Below, one piece after another: positions 1 to 62,937 of a stretch of 64,000 bases of DNA. Below the pieces are notes generated by a model. The model saw only the letters and a list, made by a program, of their open reading frames with translations, was not told the origin of the DNA and ran no database searches. Position 1 is the stretch's first letter, and each line of letters begins with the position of its first letter. This stretch comes from an uncultured Gammaproteobacteria bacterium (lineage in GTDB: Bacteria > Patescibacteriota > Microgenomatia > Levybacterales > GWA1-39-11): positions 17,608 to 81,607 of the forward strand of contig CAZEEU010000002.1 in the NCBI GenBank assembly GCA_964511305.1, read 5' to 3'. Both the position numbers and the translations under genes were made by a program.

Positions 1-573
1 TATGTTTTTGGCGAATCCGAGTCTCCTCCTCTTTATATTTCGGATATCGCAAACATGTATGGAGTTTCAAGAGAATTAATAAAAATAGATGTAGACCAAA
101 CACTTACAGCTCTCCATGCCAATGCTCCATTGCATATTCAAGACAAATACAGTTTGGGAGAGCTGATTGGTACACCAGTTCCCAAGCTAGAAAGAAAGCC
201 GTATGTACCACCGTATCAAAGAGACCGCCTGGACCCAAAGGCCGATTTGGATAAAAGAGTTATTGATCAAACATTAACACGTGAAGAAGCTCAAGTAATC
301 ATTGCGGGGTCATCTGATGGAGAGCTACTTTCATACAGAAAAAGTGATATGTTCGTTGATTCAATACTTACAATCCAAAAAGAGGCTTGGGGGATTGCAA
401 ATAGAAGAATGAGCAAATATGCATTTGGTATTCTTGAAGGTGCTGGTTTGGTTGTCGCAGAAAGGGCTCATATTGTTCGTGGCAAACAAAAAGGAAGCCA
501 CAGATTTGTATGGAAAACAGACAAAGAGCTTGCGGTTAAAACCCTTATTAAGTTCGGCTACGATTCCGGATAA
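1..573 (+). CDS. hypothetical protein, possibly 5'-partial (first ATG at 55; same frame has no stop back to base 1). C-terminal region looks like a winged-helix DNA-binding fold.
   Basis: ORF 55..573 from the track. The in-frame codons 1..54 contain no stop, so the gene may begin upstream of the window. No recognisable catalytic motif. Confidence 0.35.
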   Translation, partial: YVFGESESPPLYISDIANMYGVSRELIKIDVDQTLTALHANAPLHIQDKYSLGELIGTPVPKLERKPYVPPYQRDRLDPKADLDKRVIDQTLTREEAQVIIAGSSDGELLSYRKSDMFVDSILTIQKEAWGIANRRMSKYAFGILEGAGLVVAERAHIVRGKQKGSHRFVWKTDKELAVKTLIKFGYDSG

Positions 574-715
574 AGATTCAAAAATTTTATTTTTCGATCT
601 TAGAAGCTGCGCTGCAAATCTATCCTAGATTTGAGCTACGCTATAGAAATTCAGAAGTTCTACTTTTATATTTGGGTCACCCCTCCCTACTAATCCTATG
701 GAGTTCGAGATCACG

Positions 716-2065
716 TTACATTCGTCCGATTTTTTTGGAGAATTCAATTATTCGGGGGTCTACCATCACGTCATTTGGATAAATCTTTTTAGTTACAACC
801 ATTCCCTCAAGGGTTCTACACCGACTCAAGGCAACATACGTTTGACCATGAGTAAAAGGAGACTTTGTAAAATCAATATTGGCTTTATTAAATGTCATAC
901 CCTGGCTTTTATGAATAGTTATAGCCCATGCAAGTTTTAGCGGATATTGCTTTAATGTACCTAGCACTACCGGAACAACGCTTTGAGCATCCTCATCATA
1001 TTCGTATTTGATATTTTCCCACTCTTCTATTGGAACTGTCACAATTTCATGAAATCCAGGGTCATCTAATCTTACTTTTATAGAATCTTTATCTAATGAC
1101 TCAACAAAACCTGAAGTCCCATTAACCCAACGACGAGCTTTATCGTTCTTTATGAAAATTACCCTCGCACCTTTCTTAAGTTTTAAATCTATTTCAATAG
1201 GCAGCGTTCTTTCCTCAGTCGGAAAATTTCCTTCGACCGTTGCGTTATATGTAAATAATGGACCATCAATTTTGTTAAGCTCTGAATCGTTGATGCCAGC
1301 AACTACACTATTAGTTGTTGCAAGAGTTATAAATTCTCGTCTCACTTTTTCGTAGTCCTTTACTACAACCCTATCATTTATAAGAGCCATGTCTTGCATT
1401 GATACGTCCCCAATTCTAATTTTGTTAAGAAGTGAAATATATTGCTCATCTTTTTGCCTAAAAATGTGTGTAAGCTCAATAACAGCAAATCCGGAATCCG
1501 AAAATGCATTTGCACTGAAAAAATATGGCGACTCAAAAAATTGGCTAAAAATATGTGCCTCTTCTCGAGCAACTATCGGAGGTAGCTGATACAGGTCCCC
1601 AACTACTATCATTTGTATTCCTCCAAATGGAAGATTTCTATCTTTACCGTTAATTCTTAAGAACCTATCTAGAGCATCAAAAAGATCAGCACGTACCATA
1701 GAAATTTCGTCAATAATAACTACGTCCAAGTCCTTATACACTCGAGAATTAGAATGCCTAAATTGCACGTGAGGATCTAAAAATCTCGGTGGAAGATGGA
1801 AAAAAGAATGAACTGTTTGGCCTTTTACATTAATTGCAGCAAGTCCGGTTGGCGCAAGAACAACAGTCTTTTTCTTTGTTGTATTTCTAAAGTATTCAAT
1901 AAGCGTTGATTTTCCAGTCCCAGCTTTTCCTGTAATAAAAAGATTGAGATGTGTATTTTCCATGCTCTCGATGCAGTCGAGAAATTCTTGACTCATCTCG
2001 AAGGATTCTTCATTCCCAGTAACTAAATCTTTTATTTTTTTAATAGTCGTTGTTATAGATGACAT
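716..2065 (-). CDS. PIF1/RecD-family ATP-dependent DNA helicase
   Basis: Walker A GKAGTGKST, Walker B VVIIDEISM, motif AITIHKSQG typical of the PIF1/RecD SF1B family. 449 aa. Confidence 0.8.
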   Translation of the reverse strand: MSSITTTIKKIKDLVTGNEESFEMSQEFLDCIESMENTHLNLFITGKAGTGKSTLIEYFRNTTKKKTVVLAPTGLAAINVKGQTVHSFFHLPPRFLDPHVQFRHSNSRVYKDLDVVIIDEISMVRADLFDALDRFLRINGKDRNLPFGGIQMIVVGDLYQLPPIVAREEAHIFSQFFESPYFFSANAFSDSGFAVIELTHIFRQKDEQYISLLNKIRIGDVSMQDMALINDRVVVKDYEKVRREFITLATTNSVVAGINDSELNKIDGPLFTYNATVEGNFPTEERTLPIEIDLKLKKGARVIFIKNDKARRWVNGTSGFVESLDKDSIKVRLDDPGFHEIVTVPIEEWENIKYEYDEDAQSVVPVVLGTLKQYPLKLAWAITIHKSQGMTFNKANIDFTKSPFTHGQTYVALSRCRTLEGMVVTKKIYPNDVMVDPRIIEFSKKIGRM

Positions 2066-2175
2066 TTATAGAACAATCAGTATATCACTGCTTTAAGATG
2101 GGCTGCTATAATGTCATAACAATACAAATTCCACTCATCCCCTACTTTAAAACTTCCCGCTACAGAGTCGCTGCC

Positions 2176-2568
2176 ATGGTTGAGCTTTCAGAAATTAAAG
2201 AAGGTGAACGAGTTGCAGATCTTGGATCAGGGGACGGTCGTATTTCAATTGCTTTCGGCAAAAAAGGAGCAATAGTTACAGGATACGAATTAGACGATAG
2301 ACTCATAGATGAATCACAAAAAGAAATCCAAAATCAAAAACTAGAAAAAAATGTAATTATTAAAAAGGAAGATTTTTGGAATACAGACCTTTCTTCATAT
2401 GACGTAATTGTTATCTATCCTATGCCAGACATAATGGCACCTCTTGAAGAAAAGCTTATGAAAGAATTACGCAGAGGAACACGCGTTCTTTCAAATTTTT
2501 ATACTTTTCCTAATTGGAAATACACGGAATGCAAAGATAAGATTTATTTATACGAGTATAATGAATAA
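2176..2568 (+). CDS. class I SAM-dependent methyltransferase (small)
   Basis: Motif VADLGSGDGR (SAM-binding motif I) followed by an acidic loop YELDD. Start moved to the internal ATG at 2176 (MVELSE...), because the annotated 5' extension overlaps the divergent helicase start. Confidence 0.55.
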   Translation: MVELSEIKEGERVADLGSGDGRISIAFGKKGAIVTGYELDDRLIDESQKEIQNQKLEKNVIIKKEDFWNTDLSSYDVIVIYPMPDIMAPLEEKLMKELRRGTRVLSNFYTFPNWKYTECKDKIYLYEYNE

Positions 2569-8640: not shown

Positions 8641-8662
8641 TTTCCGTTAATTGTTAAGTGGT

Positions 8663-8696
8663 CCGGCACCCGCAGCTAAAAAGCCACGGGTGCCGG
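8663..8696. terminator. GC-rich hairpin between convergent genes (possible bidirectional terminator)
   Basis: Perfect 10-bp inverted repeat CCGGCACCCG (8663-8672) / CGGGTGCCGG (8687-8696) with a 14-nt A-rich loop. Sits between the stop at 8640 (+) and the stop at 8718 (-). Confidence 0.5.
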
Positions 8697-8717
8697 AAAG
8701 ATCTGCTGGGATGAGCG

Positions 8718-35267: not shown

Positions 35268-35603
35268 ATGGCACACCTCGCAGAACTTAAAATTGAAGAG
35301 CTCGTAGTTGGTAACGGCGCAGAAGTTAAAGAAGGCGACACAGTGGTTATGCACTATACCGGTTCGTTTCAGGATGGTGAAAAGTTTGATTCATCTGTTG
35401 ATCGCGGCGTTCCATTCGAAACCAAAATCGGTGTAGGTCATGTGATTAGAGGTTGGGATGAAGGTGTTCCCGGAATGAAAGTTGGAGGAAAGAGAAAATT
35501 GTTCATTCCTTATACAATGGCTTACGGAGAAGAAGGTGCTGGAAGCGTTATCCCCCCACTAGCAGATCTTATTTTTGAAATGGAACTCCTCGCGATTAAA
35601 TAA
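35268..35603 (+). CDS. FKBP-type peptidyl-prolyl cis-trans isomerase
   Basis: Motifs VVMHYTGSFQDGEKFDSS, GWDEGVPGMKVGGKRKLFIPYTMAYG, LIFEMELL. Confidence 0.85.
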   Translation: MAHLAELKIEELVVGNGAEVKEGDTVVMHYTGSFQDGEKFDSSVDRGVPFETKIGVGHVIRGWDEGVPGMKVGGKRKLFIPYTMAYGEEGAGSVIPPLADLIFEMELLAIK

Positions 35604-35628
35604 CTCTCAGTTTTGCTACAATTGCTTC

Positions 35629-36504
35629 ATGCTTTGGTTTTTTCTCTCACTTTTTGTCGCTGCCTCAAGCTCGACAACAAATATTTTAACGAAAAAAGCC
35701 TCAAAAGAAATTTCACCTCTTACATTCCTGCTTTTATTTTTTGGCTTTATTATTCCATTTGACATACTACTACTTCTTTTACTTGGCGGCACACCAAACG
35801 TATCCGAAGCTTTTTACTTCATGATGCTGCTCTCCATCGGACTTGATGTTATTGCGTTTATTTGTTCTATAAAAGGAATTCAGCTTTCTGACCTTTCTCT
35901 GATTGTTCCTCTCTCATCGTTTCTGCCGGTATTTACGATTATATTTAATGCTATTCTTTTTCAGGAATTCCCAACCCCTATAAAGTTCCTAGGGATTCTT
36001 TTAATTGTTGTTGGTGTTTATGTCCTTAACTTAAAAGATGTTAAGAGAGGTTTTTTAAGACCCATTCAGGACGTCTTATTTAATCGTGGCGCGCAATTAT
36101 TTCTTTTCGCCAATTTTATATGGTCAGTCACTCCAATTTTTCAAAAACAGGCAGTTCTTGCAACAATGCCCCAGAGTCCCGCATATATTGCTCTTGTAAA
36201 TTCGGTAGGAATATTTAGCGTATTGATTGTAATCGTATTTCTCAAAAGAGAAAAAATATCAAAAGCGTTTGTCAAAAAACATACACCTCTTTTTCTTTTG
36301 CTTGGAGTCCTTGGGGCAAGTTCTCAGTACGCAGCGTTTACTGCATTTTCACTTACAAACGTTGCGTATCCAAATGCTGTTTTTAAATTATCTACTCTTT
36401 TTACCGTTATTGTTGGTGGGATACTTTTAAAGGAGAAAAATGTAGGGTCGAGAATAATAGCAACAATCATAATGCTCACAGGCGTAGTCTTCCTCATCTT
36501 CTAA
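35629..36504 (+). CDS. EamA/DMT-family transporter
   Basis: 10 TM helices in two 5-TM halves. Start placed at the first Met after the FKBP stop (ORF begins at 35575). Confidence 0.6.
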   Translation: MLWFFLSLFVAASSSTTNILTKKASKEISPLTFLLLFFGFIIPFDILLLLLLGGTPNVSEAFYFMMLLSIGLDVIAFICSIKGIQLSDLSLIVPLSSFLPVFTIIFNAILFQEFPTPIKFLGILLIVVGVYVLNLKDVKRGFLRPIQDVLFNRGAQLFLFANFIWSVTPIFQKQAVLATMPQSPAYIALVNSVGIFSVLIVIVFLKREKISKAFVKKHTPLFLLLGVLGASSQYAAFTAFSLTNVAYPNAVFKLSTLFTVIVGGILLKEKNVGSRIIATIIMLTGVVFLIF

Positions 36505-36514
36505 CTTACTTAAT

Positions 36515-36634
36515 TACGGGTGACACGTCGAAGGGGCTCCATCGAGAAAATTTCACAAGCGATCAATAAAAAATAGACAGGTAGAGCGGGTGGATATTTT
36601 TGAAAATGGGGATTTAGACGTGACAGGACCCGTA
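36515..36634. repeat. ~120-bp intergenic element bounded by terminal inverted repeats (MITE-like or structured RNA), copy 1
   Basis: TACGGGTGACACGTC...GACGTGACAGGACCCGTA. The ends are reverse complements (ACGGGT/ACCCGT and CACGTC/GACGTG). A second copy at 43848..43965 is ~90% identical in both arms. Confidence 0.6.
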
Positions 36635-36639
36635 TCCCC

Positions 36640-38199
36640 TTATCCTATCTCTTCCCTCTTATTGTGCAAGAAGAAGAACCACTGATCAAAAAATCCAACC
36701 AACCCCTTATATGGGGCTTCTATTAGAAAGTCTAATATAAATAAGAAGATATTAACTTGAGAAATACCTGCAGTTAAGTATTGACCAACCCTGGCAATCG
36801 GCATGAAGAAGAAATCTACGATTGGAGTGAGTATCCCCTGAGTGCTCTCGACGCTATATTCATGAGCAGTTATATTTATGCGATATGCCAAAAAGCTTAC
36901 GATCGCCAAGAAGAATATAAAAATTGCCTGGCTGACTGCTGAAAATCCGAGAAGCGAAAGACCCAGTGATACTGCGCCAAAACTTAAAAGAAAAGCAACA
37001 ACCCACAAGATACCAAATGTTAATTCCATTACACTTCTCGGTTTTTTTTCAGAAGAAGGAAAAGCCATCACCCTACCAACTTTCGGATCTTCCTCAAAAA
37101 GGAGAGCATGAATTCTGCTTAATATTAATCGTGAATTCTTCTCGCCAGGGGTCCTTATTGAGAACCCTACTACTATCATAAAAAGGGTTGGAATAATAAC
37201 ATTTAAAGCCAATGTTAACCATTGAATGTGCCCTAAAAATATTCTTTCATATGTTCCTTCGATTCCAAAAGCTATGACTGTCTTTGAAAGCAAGATAAAT
37301 ATAACGCTCCTTATAATTGCGCGTCTTACCTTTTCAGAGATTGTCTTATATTTCTTTTTGCACGCGGCATTGATTGCAGTATTTAATTCTTCTTCATTCT
37401 CAGCAAGTTCTTTAATGTTGTTTTGTGTTGCAAAAATATCCTCCATTATCAAAAATGCAGGGATCTGTCTTTTGACATAACCCAGAACTTTAAAACGTGC
37501 AGGATGCGCAAGTTGAGATTCAATTTGTTTGTGTGCATGGCCAAATTGAGCTCCAACCTCCCCAACATCCATCTTAGACATTTCTCCAAAATACTGCGTA
37601 AATAATTTGTATCTTAAAAAGGCAAGATCATCTTTGGAATATGCACGTCTAATAGCAATAAAAAGTTGTATATCGCGCTGTTCTTCTGTTTCTTCTTGGG
37701 CAGATATACTTTTTTGCAGGACGTGGAAAATATAGTTCCCCACAGCCTCTTCAACTTTGTTTGGATGCAACATCTCTTCAATATCGGAGGACATTAACTG
37801 GAACATTAACTCCCTCATCTCTCCCTCTTTAATTTGGTGAGACTTAACAACTTCGGTTTTCAAGTGTATGTAAAAATTTATTACGTTTTCCAAAGATGTA
37901 ATAGTGTCTTCGGTGTACATACTCTCCGGAAAATATCGTGCCCACACCAACTCTTTAAGTAAAGGCTTTGCCGTACTAGCACCATTTCCACCTAAAGCCA
38001 AACGACGTTTTAGAATCCTTTCGATTGAGGCTCTTAGAATGACTTCTTCATCCCGATATTCTATGGAGTTTCTAAATTTTTCGTACCAGGAGGCAAGCTC
38101 CGAAACAAGGGGGTTAATTGCATTTGCACTTTCAATTGGAACTTCTTTTGCCTTCTCAAAAATATGGATAAGGCTCTCTGAGTACTTATTTAACTGCAT
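36640..38199 (-). CDS. large membrane protein with cytoplasmic helical N-domain, hypothetical
   Basis: ~250-aa soluble N-terminal region followed by ~7 TM helices. Start placed at the Met (MQLNKY) whose codon abuts the divergent gene. The ORF could extend to 38349. Confidence 0.45.
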   Translation of the reverse strand: MQLNKYSESLIHIFEKAKEVPIESANAINPLVSELASWYEKFRNSIEYRDEEVILRASIERILKRRLALGGNGASTAKPLLKELVWARYFPESMYTEDTITSLENVINFYIHLKTEVVKSHQIKEGEMRELMFQLMSSDIEEMLHPNKVEEAVGNYIFHVLQKSISAQEETEEQRDIQLFIAIRRAYSKDDLAFLRYKLFTQYFGEMSKMDVGEVGAQFGHAHKQIESQLAHPARFKVLGYVKRQIPAFLIMEDIFATQNNIKELAENEEELNTAINAACKKKYKTISEKVRRAIIRSVIFILLSKTVIAFGIEGTYERIFLGHIQWLTLALNVIIPTLFMIVVGFSIRTPGEKNSRLILSRIHALLFEEDPKVGRVMAFPSSEKKPRSVMELTFGILWVVAFLLSFGAVSLGLSLLGFSAVSQAIFIFFLAIVSFLAYRINITAHEYSVESTQGILTPIVDFFFMPIARVGQYLTAGISQVNIFLFILDFLIEAPYKGLVGFFDQWFFFLHNKREEIG

Positions 38200-39343
38200 G
38201 AAGATAGTATACGACAAAAATAGACAAAAAAATCTCTTAGTGCTACCATATATTCTTGTGACTGATAGCAATAGACAACAACTCCAAGAATTATCCCAAG
38301 AAATAATAGAAATCAAAAAGACTTTACGATTGGGAACTACCTCCCTCACACCTCTTAATTACCAAGAGGAAATGGACAATTTTAATTCATCTGCTTCGTA
38401 TAGTCCCATCTATATATACAAACAACCAGAGCTTCCAGATTTTTCTAAAATGATTGATGAATTTAAGCTAAAGGCAGACAGACTTGACGTCCCCGAGGAC
38501 ATAAAAGAGCACATCTTCCAATTTCTTGAAGATCAAAATAATTTGTATCTAACTAAATCGTCAATAGGTACTGAAGCGTTTTCTGAACATGCCCATCGTC
38601 TTTTTGACTGGGGCACGGACAGACTCGAAATAATTTTGGCAAATACTCCGGCAGTAGAATTTACAATGTACATAGAACATAAATTAGTTGATGCATACGC
38701 AATTAAAGAGAAATTTGTAGAAGCGCTTAGCAAGTATAATTTAACTGATTTTGAGGTTAGAGTAGACGAATTTAGTCCTCATATTGTAAGTGTTGGTTAT
38801 AAATCAGTTAGTATTGGGGCTGCTGTTAAACGATTTGAATGCAATGTGGACAGGCTTATTGTTCATGAAATAGAAAGTCATGCGATCCAAACCCAAAATA
38901 TGAAAAACTCCCCAACTCCACTTTCTGAATTTGTAAAATATGGGAATCAACATCTCTATGGAGAAGGACTTGCTGTATACAATGAGATTACTACAAGAAA
39001 GATTACCCCTTCAGCTTTTGAAATATACTTCAATAGGATTAAAGCAGTTAAGCTCTTAGATAAAAGTTTTCGTGAAATATATGAAAGCCTTTGTGAAGAT
39101 CTAGATCCAAAACGAGCTTTTGTAATGACGTATAGAGTAAAAAGGGGCATGCATGATACGGCACAACCTGGAGGTTTTCCTAAAGACGCATCATATCTTT
39201 TGGGTTACCATGAGGTTGAAAATCTTGTACTTGAGAATTATCCGAAGAAATTATTGTATGCGACTAAATCCCCCATTCTTTCATTACTGCTTCATAAGCA
39301 TGGATTATTAGATTTAGATAATGTCCTAATTCCGAAGTTCTAG
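38198..39343 (+). CDS. DUF1704 'QEGLA-motif' family protein (MATCAP-like putative zinc metallocarboxypeptidase)
   Basis: HExxH motif VHEIESHA followed by YGEGLAVY (the QEGLA signature of DUF1704). Start placed at the internal ATG 38198 (MKIVYDK...). Confidence 0.55.
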   Translation: MKIVYDKNRQKNLLVLPYILVTDSNRQQLQELSQEIIEIKKTLRLGTTSLTPLNYQEEMDNFNSSASYSPIYIYKQPELPDFSKMIDEFKLKADRLDVPEDIKEHIFQFLEDQNNLYLTKSSIGTEAFSEHAHRLFDWGTDRLEIILANTPAVEFTMYIEHKLVDAYAIKEKFVEALSKYNLTDFEVRVDEFSPHIVSVGYKSVSIGAAVKRFECNVDRLIVHEIESHAIQTQNMKNSPTPLSEFVKYGNQHLYGEGLAVYNEITTRKITPSAFEIYFNRIKAVKLLDKSFREIYESLCEDLDPKRAFVMTYRVKRGMHDTAQPGGFPKDASYLLGYHEVENLVLENYPKKLLYATKSPILSLLLHKHGLLDLDNVLIPKF

Positions 39344-41523: not shown

Positions 41524-43830
41524 ATGTCCGAACCATTAGCACCCGGAGGTGTTGCTGTTGCAGAAGCTCCACAGGCAGTAGTACCCACAACAGAAAACGT
41601 CTTAGATCAAGCTGTTGCTGTAGCTGAGCAAGCTGGCGGAGCAAGTCTAACCGGTTCTGCTGCACCAGCTATAGAAAATCCACCACTTGGAGGAATAAGT
41701 AATGTACTTCCTGGTGGAGATATGAGCTCGACAGAAGACCCCGGCAAGATTGCTGCGCAAAAAGCAGGTGAAGTTGCTGCAACGCAGGCAGCCGCGGGAA
41801 ATGAAAAAAAAGGCGGACTCTTCAGTTCTCTTGCCAAACTAAATCCCTTTAAAACGGAAATTGTTGATAGAGCAACTGCTGACGCTGCGCCTCCTCCAAA
41901 ACCTGCAGAAGTTACTCCTGGCTTAGGATTTGCCCCTGGTGAGCCAAAAATTGCAAAAATTGATGTTCCAGTTGGAGCTAATCAAGAACTAGCAGCGGGG
42001 ACCACTCCACCTGTACTTAGAGTTACAGAAGAAGCTCAAGCTGCAGAAGCAAGTGCAAATAAAGTTCTTGGCGGGAATTCACAGCTTCCAGACGCACCTG
42101 TTGAAACACCACCTGCTACTGGTTCGCTTGATGCTGCTATGGATGAGATCCACAAAACAGCTGAAGAAGCATGGAACAAGCCAGAAACATCTGCAGAACC
42201 TGCTCCCGCTGTAGATAGCGCTGTTGCCTCACCTACAGAGGTTACCGCACCAATAGCCGAAGCATCCGTTGTTCCAACAACTGTTGAAGCACCAAAGACC
42301 GCTGCCCCAGTTGAATCATTACTAGCTGCAGCTGCTCAAGAAACTGATGTCGCTGCTGATGCAGCTGCACATCCTGAAATAGTGGACTATGACAAAAATG
42401 TTGCAGCAACTGCAGGTGAAGCAGAAGATGCCGCAAATGCAGCAAAAAATGAAGCACCAAATCTTGATCCTCTTGCCGTAACAGGAACTGAGGCAAGCGC
42501 GGCGCCAGACGTTCCTGCATATACTCCTCCCCTTGATGGTCTTCCAAGTGCAGAAGTTACAGCCTCAGCCCTGCCAGATGCACAAACATCAACGCCAGAT
42601 CCTCTTGCCGTAACCACAGAGCCAGAACAAGCAATGCCTCAAGCAGTACCAGATGTTCTTTCACAAGCAGCAGACGTTGCTGCAAATGCTGAAGCAACAG
42701 GCGGACCACTCCCATCAGACGGTGCAGTAGCTCCTGCAGTCGAGAGTCCAATTCTTGCTCAAGCAAATGAAGTTGTAGCAAATGCTCAAGCATCAAGTAG
42801 TATTGCAGAGCCAAGCACTATCGGATCACAAGAACCAACAGCTCCTACGGATACTCTTTCACAAGCAGCAGACGTTGCTGCAAATGCTGAAGCAACAGGC
42901 GGACCACTCCCATCAGACGGAGCAGCAGCTCTTACAATTGAAAATCCAGTTCTTGCACAAGCAAATGAAGTTGTTGCAAACGCTGAGGCTGTCGGAGGTG
43001 CACTACCGACTGAGAATTCAGCAGATTCAGGTAATACTCCAATTGAAGCAATTGCTTCCCCACTTCCTAACGCGAATGCTACAAACGAAAATCAATGGAG
43101 TGCCTCCAACTTAACAGGAGTAACATCGGCGGAAACATCAAGCATAGCTGCATCCAGTGAGCAAACCGCAGCAACTCCTGCAACAGCCGTAATTCAGTCA
43201 TTAGAAACTATGCCCAAAGCAAACCCTATTCAAGTTCAGGCACCAGATGGCACAACACTTCCTGCAGCACCTGAAATAACCCCAGCAGAACCAGTTGCAC
43301 CAGCTGTAGTTGAAACAGTCACTACACCTACACCATCTGCAGTACCTGAAACAGTAGATTCTCCAGCCAATGAACAATCCAGCAATTTAACACCGTTCCC
43401 AGCGGCAACTCTACCAACAGAAGCATCTAGTACTTCTCCTGAAATAGCAGCTGATCTAAATACAACTACAACAATTGGAGCTGATGCAAGCGTTGAAGAA
43501 GCACCTTCAGCCTCTGTATTGCCAGATAATATGTCTGCCCTTCCTGGTGTAACTCCAGAAGCACAAACACAAGAACAAATTACCGCGGCACAAAGCGGGA
43601 TAGCACCAACATTAATAAATACAGAAGCTCCTTCAGCCACACTTGGTACCGCAACTCCAGATAATTTACTCGCCTTCCCAGGAGCAACAGCTGAAGCACA
43701 ATCACCTCAGCAAATTGCAACGGCACAAAGCGGAACACCATTAAGTACTGTCGACACCGGGCCTACAGCACCAGCTGAGGATACAAATTCAGGAACAGGA
43801 ACTCCAACTGCACCACCCATCGCCGCATAA
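41524..43830 (+). CDS. 768-aa Ala/Pro/Thr/Glu-rich low-complexity protein with internal repeats
   Basis: No TM or signal peptide. Repeated blocks LSQAADVAANAEATGGPLPSDGA (x2), NPVLAQANEVVANA (x2), DPLAVT (x3). Acidic throughout. Confidence 0.5.
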   Translation: MSEPLAPGGVAVAEAPQAVVPTTENVLDQAVAVAEQAGGASLTGSAAPAIENPPLGGISNVLPGGDMSSTEDPGKIAAQKAGEVAATQAAAGNEKKGGLFSSLAKLNPFKTEIVDRATADAAPPPKPAEVTPGLGFAPGEPKIAKIDVPVGANQELAAGTTPPVLRVTEEAQAAEASANKVLGGNSQLPDAPVETPPATGSLDAAMDEIHKTAEEAWNKPETSAEPAPAVDSAVASPTEVTAPIAEASVVPTTVEAPKTAAPVESLLAAAAQETDVAADAAAHPEIVDYDKNVAATAGEAEDAANAAKNEAPNLDPLAVTGTEASAAPDVPAYTPPLDGLPSAEVTASALPDAQTSTPDPLAVTTEPEQAMPQAVPDVLSQAADVAANAEATGGPLPSDGAVAPAVESPILAQANEVVANAQASSSIAEPSTIGSQEPTAPTDTLSQAADVAANAEATGGPLPSDGAAALTIENPVLAQANEVVANAEAVGGALPTENSADSGNTPIEAIASPLPNANATNENQWSASNLTGVTSAETSSIAASSEQTAATPATAVIQSLETMPKANPIQVQAPDGTTLPAAPEITPAEPVAPAVVETVTTPTPSAVPETVDSPANEQSSNLTPFPAATLPTEASSTSPEIAADLNTTTTIGADASVEEAPSASVLPDNMSALPGVTPEAQTQEQITAAQSGIAPTLINTEAPSATLGTATPDNLLAFPGATAEAQSPQQIATAQSGTPLSTVDTGPTAPAEDTNSGTGTPTAPPIAA

Positions 43831-43847: not shown

Positions 43848-43965
43848 ACGGGTGACACGTCGAAGGGGCTCCATCGAGAAAATTTCACAAGCGAACAATG
43901 TTACTAAATTAGTAGAGTGGGTGAATATTTTCGAAAATGGGGATTTAGACGTGGCAGGACCCGTA
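43848..43965. repeat. ~120-bp TIR-bounded intergenic element, copy 2
   Basis: The first 47 nt are identical to copy 1 (ACGGGTGACACGTCGAAGGGGCTCCATCGAGAAAATTTCACAAGCGA). The last 53 nt differ at 4 positions. The central ~20 nt is divergent. Confidence 0.6.
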
Positions 43966-43969
43966 ACAC

Positions 43970-44587
43970 CTAATACTCGCTTCTTCCTTCAAGTGCTCGA
44001 GTGAGGGTTACTTCGTCAGCATATTCAATATCTGCACCGACTGGAAGTCCTCTACCAATTCTAGTTATTTTAAGCTCGGGACTTTGGAACTTTAATTGCT
44101 TAACCAGATACATTGCCGTCGCTTCCCCTTCCATTGTAGGATTTGTCGCAATAATAATCTCCTCAATCTCCTGACCGCTGTCCGCTGTTTCCCGTAATCT
44201 TTTCATCAATTGCGGGATATAAATATCATCGGGTCCAATTGAATTGAGAGGATCAATTACTCCATGAAGTACATGATACACCCCGTTAAATTTGTCAGAT
44301 TTTTCAAATGCAATTACGTCTAACGCGTCCTCAACCAAACAAATTGTTGAAATATCACGTTGAGGATCAGAACACACGTCACATATATCAGTAGTGCCGA
44401 TATTAAAACAGATCGTACACATCTTTGTATTTTTCTTAAGATTTGTGAGAGAGGCTGCAAAATCATCAAGATCACTTTGTGGTACATGTAATAAATAGAA
44501 GCCAAGGCGCTGCGCCGACTTAGGACCAATACCTGGTAGTCGTTCAAAACCTTCAATAACCTGTTCTAACGCTCTGGGAATTTTCAT
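43970..44587 (-). CDS. recR: recombination protein RecR
   Basis: HhH N-terminus, C4 zinc finger CTICFNIGTTDICDVC, Toprim domain. Confidence 0.9.
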   Translation of the reverse strand: MKIPRALEQVIEGFERLPGIGPKSAQRLGFYLLHVPQSDLDDFAASLTNLKKNTKMCTICFNIGTTDICDVCSDPQRDISTICLVEDALDVIAFEKSDKFNGVYHVLHGVIDPLNSIGPDDIYIPQLMKRLRETADSGQEIEEIIIATNPTMEGEATAMYLVKQLKFQSPELKITRIGRGLPVGADIEYADEVTLTRALEGRSEY

Positions 44588-46422: not shown

Positions 46423-46875
46423 TTAATAAATTCTTGTAGTATGAGTATAACTCGTAAAATCGGCGTTGTGTGTTTCAGTTATCTGCCCTACAGAGGCACC
46501 TACGTATTCACTCAGCAATATTAATCTTTGAGGAGTCTCATTCAATGTAAGTTCAAATTGTTCCAGCATTTCAGCTGGAAGCCTGTGCCATTCATCAACT
46601 TCAAGGGTAGCTAATTTGGCTTCCCATCCCGCATCTCTTTTTTGAACACTATGCATGAGAACATAATTGATTGTCCTAATAGAACCAAATTCTATGTTGG
46701 CGACTCTATAAACTTCTGCCGTTTGATCCCCTGCTCCTCTTAATTTATTTGCACTATCCTCCACTATGTGACGAGCTTCACCTAACTGATCTTTGCGTTC
46801 GCCAATGAAATTATCTAGAAGTGTTCTTGATTCTTGAATTTGGGCTGGGGTGGACGAATGGGTTTCGTTAGCCAT
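46423..46875 (-). CDS. hypothetical protein (occupies the slot where pyrH usually sits)
   Basis: 150 aa, no kinase motifs. Start codon overlaps the tsf stop by 1 nt (TAATG). Confidence 0.45.
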   Translation of the reverse strand: MANETHSSTPAQIQESRTLLDNFIGERKDQLGEARHIVEDSANKLRGAGDQTAEVYRVANIEFGSIRTINYVLMHSVQKRDAGWEAKLATLEVDEWHRLPAEMLEQFELTLNETPQRLILLSEYVGASVGQITETHNADFTSYTHTTRIY

Positions 46876-47327
46876 TAGATTTCGGAGCGTTTGAATTCAC
46901 TAATCTTAATATTCTCACCAAGTTTTGCGATTGCTTCTGTTACCAAATCATTTATAACCTTTGATCCGTCCCGAATGTATTCTTGCTTAAGAAGCGCATC
47001 TACATCTTTAGGATTCATTGCTGCAATTTGCATAGCAACTTCATGAGCCAGATGCTTAAATTCGTCTGTTCTTGCAACGAAATCTGTTTCACAAAGCACT
47101 GATACGAGTACTCCTACTTTTCCTGTTTGATGAACGTAGCTTTCAACGAGTCCTTGACCTGTCTCACGGTCAGACTTTTTAGCAGCTTTTTCAAAACCCT
47201 TTTTTCGAAGGATTTCTTCTGCCTTTTTCATATCTCCTTTTGCCTCATCAAGAGCCATTTTGCAATCTGCAAAACCTGCTTGGGTTTTTTCTCTTAAGTC
47301 TTTGATTTGTTGTGCTGAAATTGCCAT
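46875..47327 (-). CDS. tsf: elongation factor Ts (short form)
   Basis: N-terminal UBA-like MAISAQQIKDLREKTQAGFADCKMAL plus dimerisation core. Start placed at the MAIS Met, 1 nt after the rpsB stop. Confidence 0.85.
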   Translation of the reverse strand: MAISAQQIKDLREKTQAGFADCKMALDEAKGDMKKAEEILRKKGFEKAAKKSDRETGQGLVESYVHQTGKVGVLVSVLCETDFVARTDEFKHLAHEVAMQIAAMNPKDVDALLKQEYIRDGSKVINDLVTEAIAKLGENIKISEFKRSEI

Positions 47328-47328
47328 A

Positions 47329-48111
47329 TTATTTAGCCTTCTCCTCTGCAACCTTTGCTTTTCTTGTTTCTTCTGCTAATTTCTCGGCTGCTTTGTTGTC
47401 TACTTTTAATTTTTCCTTAGATCCTTCGATCCAAGCGTCAATTAAATATGTAGTAATAAGCTTGATTGATCCAACTGCATCATCATTTGCAGGAATTGAA
47501 AAATCAACTTCGGATGGATCTGCATTTGTGTCAGTTATACCGATTGTTTTAAGTCCAACTCTTGCAGCCTCTCTTACAGCTGTATTTTCTCCATGCGTAT
47601 CAATAATAAATACAGCATCAGGTGCTTGCTTGATAGTAAATAAACCTCCGTATATGTCTTTTAATTTTATTAGTTCTTTTTCAAAAATACCAACTTCTCT
47701 TTTTGTGTATCCACCACGATCTTCAGCAGTAACAATTTTCTCAAGATCAACAAGCTTTTTGAAATTTTTCTTTACTTCTTCAAAATTTGTAAAAATTCCA
47801 CCAATCCAACGAGAAATGATGTAATGAATCGTGTCTGGGGTTACTTCTCGGGCCCTTTCAACTTCTTCTTTAACGATTGCCTGAGCCTGTCTTTTTGTAC
47901 CTACGACAACAATGCTTCCGCCTTTTGCTGCAAGTTCTTTAACATATTCTGCAGCCGCAATAAGACCTTCCTGAGTTGCCTCAAGATTTATGATATTAAC
48001 TCCTCCGCGAGCTTCAAAAATATAGCGATTAGCTTTTGGGTTGCGTCTATTAACTTGATGTCCAAAATGACATCCAGCTTCCAATAATTCTTCTAGTGTA
48101 ATTTGTCTCAT
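47329..48111 (-). CDS. rpsB: 30S ribosomal protein S2
   Basis: MRQITLEELLEAGCHFGHQ...RWIGG signature. Confidence 0.95.
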   Translation of the reverse strand: MRQITLEELLEAGCHFGHQVNRRNPKANRYIFEARGGVNIINLEATQEGLIAAAEYVKELAAKGGSIVVVGTKRQAQAIVKEEVERAREVTPDTIHYIISRWIGGIFTNFEEVKKNFKKLVDLEKIVTAEDRGGYTKREVGIFEKELIKLKDIYGGLFTIKQAPDAVFIIDTHGENTAVREAARVGLKTIGITDTNADPSEVDFSIPANDDAVGSIKLITTYLIDAWIEGSKEKLKVDNKAAEKLAEETRKAKVAEEKAK

Positions 48112-48234: not shown

Positions 48235-48615
48235 TCAGATTCTTGTAATATTTTTTGAACTTTTTAATAAGCCATTTATGATCTTATGAACCTCAATGGA
48301 CTTAGCATCAAGTTCCTGAAATACTTCTGAATTCATCAATCCTACGTCATGAGATATTTGTAATTGGCTTTGGAGCTCAGTTACAGAACCAAGTGAAACT
48401 GAATAGAACTGAGACTTATCCTTATAAGTTTTTCTGCTAAAACCTTCTGCTATGTTTGAGACTATAGAGACGACACACCTTCGCATTTGACTTGTTAACC
48501 CAAACTGTTCGATTGTGGGGAAATTTCTTGTAACCTCATAGATTCTAACGGCTAGAACGTGAGATTTTTTCCAAGCAAACAAATCTTCAAACGACTTAAT
48601 TTTTAAATTTTCCAT
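48235..48615 (-). CDS. four-helix-bundle protein (23S rRNA intervening-sequence protein family)
   Basis: F.AWKKSH.LA..IY..T..FP..E.FGLTSQMRR...SI..NIAEG pattern of PF05635/TIGR02436. Confidence 0.75.
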   Translation of the reverse strand: MENLKIKSFEDLFAWKKSHVLAVRIYEVTRNFPTIEQFGLTSQMRRCVVSIVSNIAEGFSRKTYKDKSQFYSVSLGSVTELQSQLQISHDVGLMNSEVFQELDAKSIEVHKIINGLLKSSKNITRI

Positions 48616-48716
48616 ACCTGTAAGTCAGTATAAAATCTTGTTATTAAATTATTCTGTACTTTTCTACTTAATACTTACTTCTTGATACTTTATTCTTTAT
48701 CCGTCTAAAATGAGTT

Positions 48717-61026: not shown

Positions 61027-61394
61027 ATTATTTAGATAATTTCTTTCTTAAGTTGAAAACTTTTCGTTCTAAAGAACGGGCCACAAAAGGCTTAACTGCT
61101 TCAAAGGTGTTTGATGCAACCTTACCGACAACTTTTGCCCCTGTCTTAATATCTTTTGTAGGTAACTCAATTTCTTTCACAGTGCGTAATTATATCAGAA
61201 AACCTGGGAAAATTAAAGTACTATGGGATTAAGTGTTGCACACTTAATCCCAACGAAGTTAAGATGCAATCTTAACTGAGTATGGGACAATCTGTGATCC
61301 TAGACACAGAACAATCTTTGTCAAAAGATTTTTATGGGATTAAGACGAAGTCCATTGTGCTTTGGGCGAAGCCAAAAGAGTTGGGGTAAATTTG

Positions 61395-61466
61395 AGGCGC
61401 GGAAGGGAATCGAACCCTCGCATAGAAGTTTTGCAGACTCCCGTGTTACCACTTCACCACCGCGCC
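61395..61466 (-). tRNA. tRNA-Cys (anticodon GCA)
   Basis: Reverse complement folds as GGCGCGG|TG|GTG-AAGTGGTAA-CAC|G|GGAGT-CTGCAAA-ACTTC|TATGC|GAGGG-TTCGATT-CCCTT|CCGCGCC|T. 7-bp acceptor stem, T-loop TTCGATT, U33 and A37 present, anticodon GCA. CCA not encoded. Confidence 0.85.
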
Positions 61467-62670: not shown

Positions 62671-62937
62671 GTCCGCTACTTGTCTTGATTGTATTTACTC
62701 TCTTGAGGTCCAACCTGAAACTTAGCGAAGCAAAGGATCAGGCACATTACTTATCTTGATTATATCGACTTTCCTGTGGTCCTGCCTGAAACTTACACGC
62801 AGTGAAGTTTTAGGCGTTATTTATCTTGGTTATACTTACTTTCTTGAGGACCTGCCTGGAACTTACACGCAGTGAAGTTTTAGGCGTTATTTATCTTGGT
62901 TATACTTACTTTCTTGAGGACCTGCCTGGAACTTATA
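62671..62937. repeat. ~70-bp tandem repeat, ~3.8 copies with increasing divergence upstream. The last copy encodes the C-terminus of dcd
   Basis: 62811-62880 and 62881-62935 are identical (TAGGCGTTATTTATCTTGGTTATACTTACTTTCTTGAGGACCTGCCTGGAACTTA...). Two further degenerate copies lie upstream. Confidence 0.8.

Follow-up and report, generated by a model that had tools for sequence, protein, structure and literature searches.

This stretch of DNA, the 64,000-nt window analysed here, contains a sequence of about 120 bp with pairing ends twice, which raises the question whether that sequence is a mobile element, a structured RNA or a bidirectional terminator, the three options left by an earlier sequence-only reading. 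We put at roughly 75% the probability that both sequences are insertions of a non-autonomous mobile palindromic repeat of Levyibacteria-type CPR bacteria, most likely without a dedicated function and serving at most as 3'-UTR hairpins.

The 47-mer ACGGGTGACACGTCGAAGGGGCTCCATCGAGAAAATTTCACAAGCGA, which forms the 5' arm, is found twice without mismatch in the window, each time on the + strand (36516-36562 and 43848-43894). With its partner arm it delimits a hairpin element of 118 nt as copy 1 (36516..36633, + strand; 62.4 bits and E ~1e-13 with the covariance model R2 described below), the closing helix of which can be extended by a T36515/A36634 pair, and one of 117 nt as copy 2 (43848..43964, + strand; 63.4 bits with R2). 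The 3' arms, 36581-36633 and 43912-43964, mismatch at 4 of 53 positions (49/53 match), while the centres, 18 nt in copy 1 (36563-36580) and 17 nt in copy 2 (43895-43911), differ by 1 nt in length and are dissimilar. Copy 1 lies 11 nt downstream of the stop of an EamA-family transporter gene (35575..36504, +) and 6 nt from the stop of a 569-aa gene without Pfam match (36640..38349, -); copy 2 lies 17 nt downstream of the stop of a 768-aa low-complexity gene (41524..43830, +) and its 3' end is 5 nt from the stop of recR (43970..44587, -), so that at both places the spacer between the convergent stop codons is almost wholly taken up by the element. What had been noticed beforehand, namely two copies with the same 47-nt 5' arms and ~92%-identical 53-nt 3' arms around a divergent centre, each exactly between convergent gene ends, is hereby borne out. 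The window also holds two other repeats: the 768-aa gene carries an internal repeat of ~130 nt (42657-42786 and 42855-42984, ~91% identical), and an unrelated GC-rich 16-bp hairpin with a 4-nt loop, TCCGGCACCCGCAGCT/AGCCACGGGTGCCGGA, lies at 8662-8697, also between convergent ORFs.

The copy count that had been proposed was made over the whole window by blastn and nhmmer and gave the two copies and no third; a further ~17 kb of sequence of the same species contained none, which brings the total to two copies in ~81 kb. This low number is the one point in favour of a chance similarity, or of two parts of a segmental duplication without any wider family, and that reading is already refuted, with practically no probability left to it. 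In shuffles the expected number of exact 47-nt repeats is 0.00, more than 30 homologues exist elsewhere, and beyond the element ends the identity is gone and the flanks of the copies are dissimilar. Segmental duplication, which had been named beforehand as the finding that would speak against an independent element, is excluded by this end of identity at the element borders.

The window locus was found in contigs of several metagenomes at 96-99.9% identity, and among strains 96-98% identical overall copy 2 is nearly identical. Its centre is the same across the strains of 96-99.9% identity, by which a hypervariable centre is ruled out. Three Logan contigs end within copy 2, precisely where it first has a 31-mer absent from copy 1, which is how a repeat shows itself in an assembly graph with k = 31. 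A small-protein gene was rejected as well, since the 1-nt indel in the centre interrupts, in copy 1, the 50-aa ORF that crosses copy 2; protein-word searches with this ORF and with all open frames of both copies gave no match. A gene for a bAvd / 23S-rRNA-IVS-type four-helix protein (48242-48622, -; Pfam) adjoins rpsB and had suggested the template and variable repeats of a diversity-generating retroelement, an idea rejected because the differences between the copies are not adenine-specific, no reverse transcriptase is present and neither copy is coding. Near the bAvd gene itself, neither a reverse transcriptase nor a repeat pair nor any other sign of such a retroelement was seen.

Several other features of the window were also observed. 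At ~49.9-52.7 kb the window is unalignable between strains otherwise 99.7% identical, and the proteins there have no Pfam match or weak Cohesin matches; this looks like a strain-variable surface-protein island, and dockerin and cohesin genes cluster at 54-60 kb. Two Logan contigs, L007 and L008 (loci and contigs are cited by such handles), are 100% identical to window positions 1-2559 and then fully divergent just beyond the PIF1-helicase gene. At 61302-61466 and 62748-62865, around a tRNA (61395-61466) and dcd, the alignments of other strains overlap, which implies short direct repeats or a ~118-nt duplication differing between strains. Finally, the EF-Ts region (46423-47351, -) consists of two abutting ORFs of 150 aa, with an EF_TS domain in the first only, and may represent a split or unusual tsf gene.

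Both copies take the form of one long imperfect hairpin, in which a helix P1 is followed by an asymmetric junction, a helix P2, an internal loop, a helix P3 and an apical extension tipped by the variable centre. The termini are reverse-complementary as had been stated (ACGGGT/ACCCGT and CACGTC/GACGTG), and the pairing consists of two 6-bp helices, P1 and P2, split by an asymmetric loop with GA opposite RCAGG; P3 pairs CTCCAT with ATGGGG. On the + strand of copy 1, the 5' basal module spans 36516..36529 (P1 36516-21, GA 36522-23, P2 36524-29) and its 3' partners are P2' 36617-22, ACAGG 36623-27 and P1' 36628-33; between them, P3 and the apical 'long-form' module occupy 36537..36611 (P3 36537-42 with 36606-11), with the centre 36563-36580 inside. 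The corresponding + strand features of copy 2 are the 5' basal module 43848..43861 (P1 43848-53, GA 43854-55, P2 43856-61), the 3' partners P2' 43948-53, GCAGG 43954-58 and P1' 43959-64, and P3 with the apical module at 43869..43942 (P3 43869-74 with 43937-42), with the centre 43895-43911 inside. The arms pair with each other and neither forms a hairpin alone. As + strand RNA the copies fold at -35.8 (copy 1) and -38.3 kcal/mol (copy 2), with z = -2.8 and -2.9, whereas the - strand RNA is indistinct from shuffles (z = -0.75 and -0.95). Six members were tested, and each folded better as + strand than as - strand, by 2.5-12 kcal/mol. Of the four positions at which the window 3' arms differ, three change a + strand G.U pair into G-C or A-U. 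As DNA either strand is foldable, the + strand being somewhat more stable.

Relatives were sought in the 80 best RecR loci of GTDB species representatives, which cover 1.36 Mb around recR and are all of Patescibacteria/CPR type. The closest RecR proteins in this set are 79-83% identical and come from MAGs titled Candidatus Levyibacteriota or from mislabelled TPA assemblies; in the window the neighbours RecR, RRF, EF-Ts and others are bacterial. Using nhmmer, one diverged copy, ~70% identical, was found in L013, the RecR of which is 79% identical. As for copy 1, 6 nt separate it from the neighbouring stop, here that of the orthologue of the 569-aa gene, and its P1, P3 and apical helix all show compensatory changes. 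A first covariance model (R1), built from the window copies and L013, added L070, L021 and L016, and a motif scan added L024, L032, L045 and L075. The model R2, restricted to P1-P3 and with L032 and L075 outside its training set, recovers exactly ten members from the 1.36 Mb, the two window copies and one each in L013, L016, L021, L024, L032, L045, L070 and L075; the untrained members score E 5e-12 (L032) and 2e-8 (L075), E-values from such short-calibrated models being rough. The family is sporadic, with a copy in 8 of the 80 related recR loci, in species with a RecR 55-80% identical to that of the window.

The 3' motif common to L013 and L070, GGTGAGGAGYGRCAGGACCC, matched 39 metagenome stretches, 26 of which R2 confirms at E <= 4e-6; these represent 24 distinct members, up to three per contig, on contigs placed by low GC and compact gene layout only. 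Weak covariance-model matches in L210, L226, L227 and L235 were rejected as apparently conserved sequence of another organism with the motif by chance. An exact 22-mer of the window 5' arm is absent from GTDB genomes and JGI metagenomes, neither collection containing the window species. In viral contigs the specific GC-type pattern of the termini was unmatched, and more than 120 matches to a loose termini pattern are noise. Members measure 75-125 bp and encode no protein of their own. Those in L219 and L224 are 'long forms' that share the window-type apical module, which is also present in L013, while most other metagenome members are 'short forms' of 75-100 nt with other apices on the same basal module. 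The apical module thus varies by subfamily and the basal module, 5' (N)GGGGUGRC-P2-...-P3 ... P3'-...-P2'-GRCAGGACCCC(N) 3', is the conserved part, which explains the pattern of conserved arms around a variable centre. A 45-nt minimal derivative at L232:1429-1473, consisting of P1, P2 and the junctions only, resembles an internal deletion of the element. A full-text literature search for CPR or Patescibacteria together with palindromic elements or MITEs returned nothing relevant, and within the literature searched the family appears to be undescribed.

How the hairpin has changed among these members bears on its nature. In a 33-member alignment, which had been fitted to the covariance model, a caveat on the pairing statistics drawn from it, 86.4% of the P1-P3 cells are in standard pairs compared to 68.9% in shuffles, 98 cells show double-sided changes compared to 29, and the covariation score is 0.397 compared to 0.099 after shuffling and at most 0.10 with the partners shifted by 1-3 columns. 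At the junction, 16 of the 33 members have an A.G pair, another 16 have G.A and one, window copy 1, has A.A; a tandem GA/GA lies inside P2 in 24/33. Such non-canonical pairs are pyrimidine mismatches on the complement, by which the selected fold belongs to the window + strand. These alignments clearly point to a hairpin under selection for structure. A K-turn at the P1/P2 junction was considered and rejected, its 1n position being G in half of the members.

Strong helix covariation, the A.G/G.A pair and the tandem G.A, together with better folding of the + strand, are also what would be expected of a functional structured RNA family read from the + strand, in the form of small RNA genes or of cis-acting 3'-UTR or leader elements, paralogous and binding protein or RNA. 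This reading is further served by the direction of the changes between the window copies, by the fold retained at the orthologous L013 locus and by AT-rich, promoter-like sequence that precedes the stand-alone copies of L024, L070 and L075. As the sequence-only reading had proposed, Rfam 15 was searched for covariance-model matches. No match reached the gathering threshold in the window or in L013, L016, L021 and L070, and even at E <= 10 nothing relevant appeared over copy 1 or the L016 copy. The SRP RNA had come to mind on account of a 'GGAGCA' motif of the family and of a location at dnaX. The SRP RNA gene ffs classically lies upstream of dnaX. It was rejected given the lack of an Rfam SRP match and of a GNRA-capped helix-8 core, the variable apex, the multiple copies and the copies inside ORFs.

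The position of the copies relative to genes is hard to reconcile with such an RNA. Most copies fill their spacers and leave 3-30 nt per side, many of them thereby without promoter room, and no promoter-like or terminator-like site coincides with either window copy on the two strands scanned. Relative to the surrounding transcription units either orientation occurs: the element is on the strand of its neighbours in L245 and in L240, where it lies between atpG and atpD at 3 and 13 nt, and on the opposite strand around nusB and rnc, where two copies of the same orientation, 640 nt apart, flank nusB directly upstream of rnc, the RNase III gene (L228:3535-4260; also L230). A single 357-kb contig carries three copies (L215, L237 and L245), which are mutually 93-95% identical and vary in P1 and P2 by compensatory replacement of G-C with A-U. 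The element stands out by its GC content, 0.59-0.77 compared to 0.37-0.47 for the host loci.

A bidirectional terminator or 3'-end stabiliser family, with copies kept alike by convergent selection or gene conversion, would explain why the stable hairpins of the window, L013, L211, L222, L234 and L247 sit precisely where two convergent genes end. We hold it to be very improbable, and the claim of a bidirectional terminator falls with it: there is no U tract on either strand, the terminator scan was empty at both window copies, close relatives lack the element at the same recR site, and copies also occur upstream of genes, inside ORFs and between the co-directional atpG and atpD. From the copies between atpG and atpD and in folD, and the lack of a U tract, a terminator is not expected.

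Comparison of filled and empty sites separates the copies in time. Downstream of recR the convergent gene ends are 139 nt apart in the window; L010, L011 and L013 lack the element there and have these ends close to each other, with a 10-nt gap between the ORFs in L013. Upstream of a tsaD-like gene the spacer consists of the element plus 33 nt in L246 compared to 6 nt in the syntenic L211, and beside the 569-aa gene the element is present in the window and L013, with an unrelated 100-nt spacer in L010. Copy 1 would then be the older one, common to L013, and copy 2, specific to the window lineage, would have entered a spacer of ~20 nt downstream of recR once that lineage had separated from its nearest sampled relatives. 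Nested copies occur as well: at L215:6552-6637 and L247:12739-12832 the flanks lengthen P1 by 15 and 7 bp, and at L225:2048-2206 the copy lies between the 17-bp arms of a larger palindrome. Their central place in larger palindromes hints at insertion into pre-existing hairpins. The tsaD-like gene just mentioned contains a second, unrelated palindrome in frame, TGTCATTGCGAG...47 nt...CTCGCAATGACA, at L246:4980-5050 and L211:5969-6035 in these related contigs and absent from the window, which indicates that these genomes hold more than one family of coding palindromes.

Copies of the element itself are found in frame within six genes, dnaX, folD, a GT4 glycosyltransferase gene, mfd, mnmA and rnhB, with intact domains on either side, and are evidently read through. 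All of these belong to other genomes, the window copies being intergenic. In DnaX the copy lies in the linker after domain III in four species, of which the DnaX proteins are 42-50% identical to that of L016; these copies are antisense and translated as RGP(A/V)T.FPP...S.(V/A)TP. In L032:8286-8332 the 5' terminus of the dnaX copy is partly tandem-duplicated, with ACGGGTGGC twice and a repeated 'SATR' in the protein. A stimulator of dnaX frameshifting was rejected, because no slippery site lies upstream of the copies in L016 and L021 and the polarity of the element is opposite. FolD shows a 32-aa insertion at the element when aligned to solved (PDB) FolD structures, and in the GT4 glycosyltransferase the copy sits between the two domains. 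The three sense-strand copies within ORFs use one common frame, ...WGEERQDP, and the third frame of the sense-strand arm contains TGA, as read directly from the sequence.

For a dedicated RNA gene or cis-regulator one would not expect both orientations, missing promoter room, presence within six unrelated ORFs and the lack of it in most close relatives. With in-frame copies on either strand, no Rfam family, the sporadic distribution and neither promoter nor terminator predictions at the window copies, we regard a structured RNA as improbable for the primary nature of the element; that earlier claim is unlikely for want of an Rfam match and of a U tract and in view of the operon-internal and in-ORF copies, the structural selection being clear nonetheless. 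In the window, each copy would likely form a stable hairpin in the 3' UTRs of both convergent genes, and a secondary role as such a 3'-UTR hairpin is possible.

For the mobile repeat that we favour, the usual marks of transposition were looked for. The proposed check for a target-site duplication gave none: the best candidate was a dinucleotide at 6 of 32 copies with ~2 expected, nothing was seen at k = 3-5, and the filled and empty recR sites compared revealed no duplicated bases. The terminal inverted repeats are short and imperfect, (N)GGGT/ACCC(N) of 5-9 bp followed by the 6-7-bp P2 past the asymmetric loop, and the outermost pairs covary and are not fixed in sequence. In the loci examined, the copies share no recurring neighbour gene family, no RAYT gene was encountered and no partner transposase has matching ends, the sole DDE_Tnp_1 ORF (near L225) having unrelated ends; in the window, no transposase domain was found by Pfam in 26 ORFs and the annotated genes of ~34-64 kb. 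Of the proposal of a MITE/REP-like mobile element, the dispersed multiple copies, the filled and empty sites, both orientations and the in-frame copies stand; the classical marks of a MITE are present in part only, with neither a target-site duplication nor, in the loci examined, a partner transposase found. Against mobility it also weighs that movement is deduced from sequence and that ~81 kb of the species hold two copies only. A host-selected RNA would equally fit the copy shared with L013, which kept its fold by compensatory changes at a fixed locus, and the junction nucleotides, which were kept across species as distant as the RecR identities above indicate.

A strand preference was found. 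Among 27 loci with 3 kb or more of flank, not all of them independent, 23 have the element's G-rich strand on the genome strand that is locally C-rich, as do 12 of 16 metagenome loci taken alone; gene orientation does not account for this bias. Across the window (1-64000), 14 of 16 4-kb bins have a negative GC skew and the cumulative curve descends almost monotonically, which fits the strong and even chromosome-wide strand asymmetry reported for Microgenomates (PMC7143001). We infer that the repeat spreads by means of a trans-acting enzyme that would recognise a folded single strand, the window + strand. Its substrate is probably ssDNA, because the non-Watson-Crick pairs are present on one strand only, no target-site duplication is seen and the element favours the C-rich strand. 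By analogy with REP/REPIN-RAYT (PMC3116915) or IS200/IS605, these features suggest that it is the folded single strand that is recognised.

An element that is more than decaying selfish DNA, a strand-specific folded motif read by a conserved CPR protein, seems unlikely to us, with the A.G/G.A pair in 32/33 members, the tandem G.A and the strand bias (23/27) arguing for it. It could possibly take the form of a new ssDNA mobilisation, HUH-type or other, tied to replication under whole-chromosome strand asymmetry, or of a mobile RNA structure recruited by the host.

The usual picture of CPR/Patescibacteria genomes is one of streamlining with few mobile elements. From one complete Microgenomates genome, mobile-element-related genes were reported to be entirely missing (PMC7143001). 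A structure-selected repeat in spacers of 3-30 nt and in interdomain linkers of housekeeping proteins would mean that selfish DNA persists in CPR. The family would also explain some contig breaks and odd 'insertions' in CPR proteins and might serve as a strain-typing marker, and its conserved non-canonical pairs offer a concrete handle for finding the mobilising enzyme. With it, the 'protein-coding palindrome' phenomenon, once considered peculiar to Rickettsia, would extend to a very different reduced-genome lineage.

The best reading is that the element behaves like Rickettsia RPEs, MITEs or REPINs and constitutes a new family for CPR bacteria. Integron attC sites and the end hairpins of IS200-IS605 are likewise imperfect and recognised as ssDNA, with the structure and a few unpaired or mispaired bases conserved around a variable centre. 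The CPR element also conserves its structure and mispairs around a variable centre, an analogy of mechanism only, as it has no GTTRRRY core and no integrase or TnpA nearby. With REPINs and the REP-RAYT system (PMC3116915) it shares two conserved inverted arms around a less conserved spacer, a single-stranded hairpin, the lack of a target-site duplication and long-lived sequence populations within genomes, a strand-specific folded substrate being plausible for both. It differs in that neither arm is a short REP palindrome, the loci examined revealed no RAYT and the copy number in the window species seems low; REPINs are extragenic in a strict sense, whereas the CPR family also lies in ORFs of six host genes. 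MITEs such as Correia/NEMIS, ERIC/IRU and RUP (PMC2229807, PMC3184786) are, like it, small, non-coding and dispersed in multiple copies, with ends that pair into a long stem-loop, and mostly intergenic and co-transcribed with their neighbours. The general description of a MITE, less than ~300 bp, without transposase ORF and in dispersed copies, applies to the CPR element, with more than 30 members at unrelated sites. It departs from MITEs in the lack of a TA or other target-site duplication, the short terminal inverted repeats and the lack of a parent IS with the same ends in the loci examined.

The closest match, by analogy and as far as the description in the review goes, is with the RPEs (Ogata et al. 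2000, reviewed in PMC2229807), hairpins of 105-146 bp that occur in spacers and fused in frame into 19 protein genes, with an unclear target duplication and an unknown mobiliser. The CPR/Levyibacteria element has a different host and no evident sequence relationship to the RPEs, which were compared by description, and sequence homology to RPE-1 to RPE-8 is unlikely given the host phylum and composition. Moreover, the CPR family is GC-rich in AT-rich hosts and is marked by a short basal module, exchangeable apices, a purine-purine pair and tandem G.A, and the window itself holds no in-frame copy. As the review presents the RPEs (PMC2229807), neither family has a clear target-site duplication or an identified mobilising enzyme, and both are ~100-150-bp long-hairpin repeats of small AT-rich genomes, present in spacers and in frame in conserved protein genes, tolerated only in stop-free frames and shared between species as orthologous insertions.
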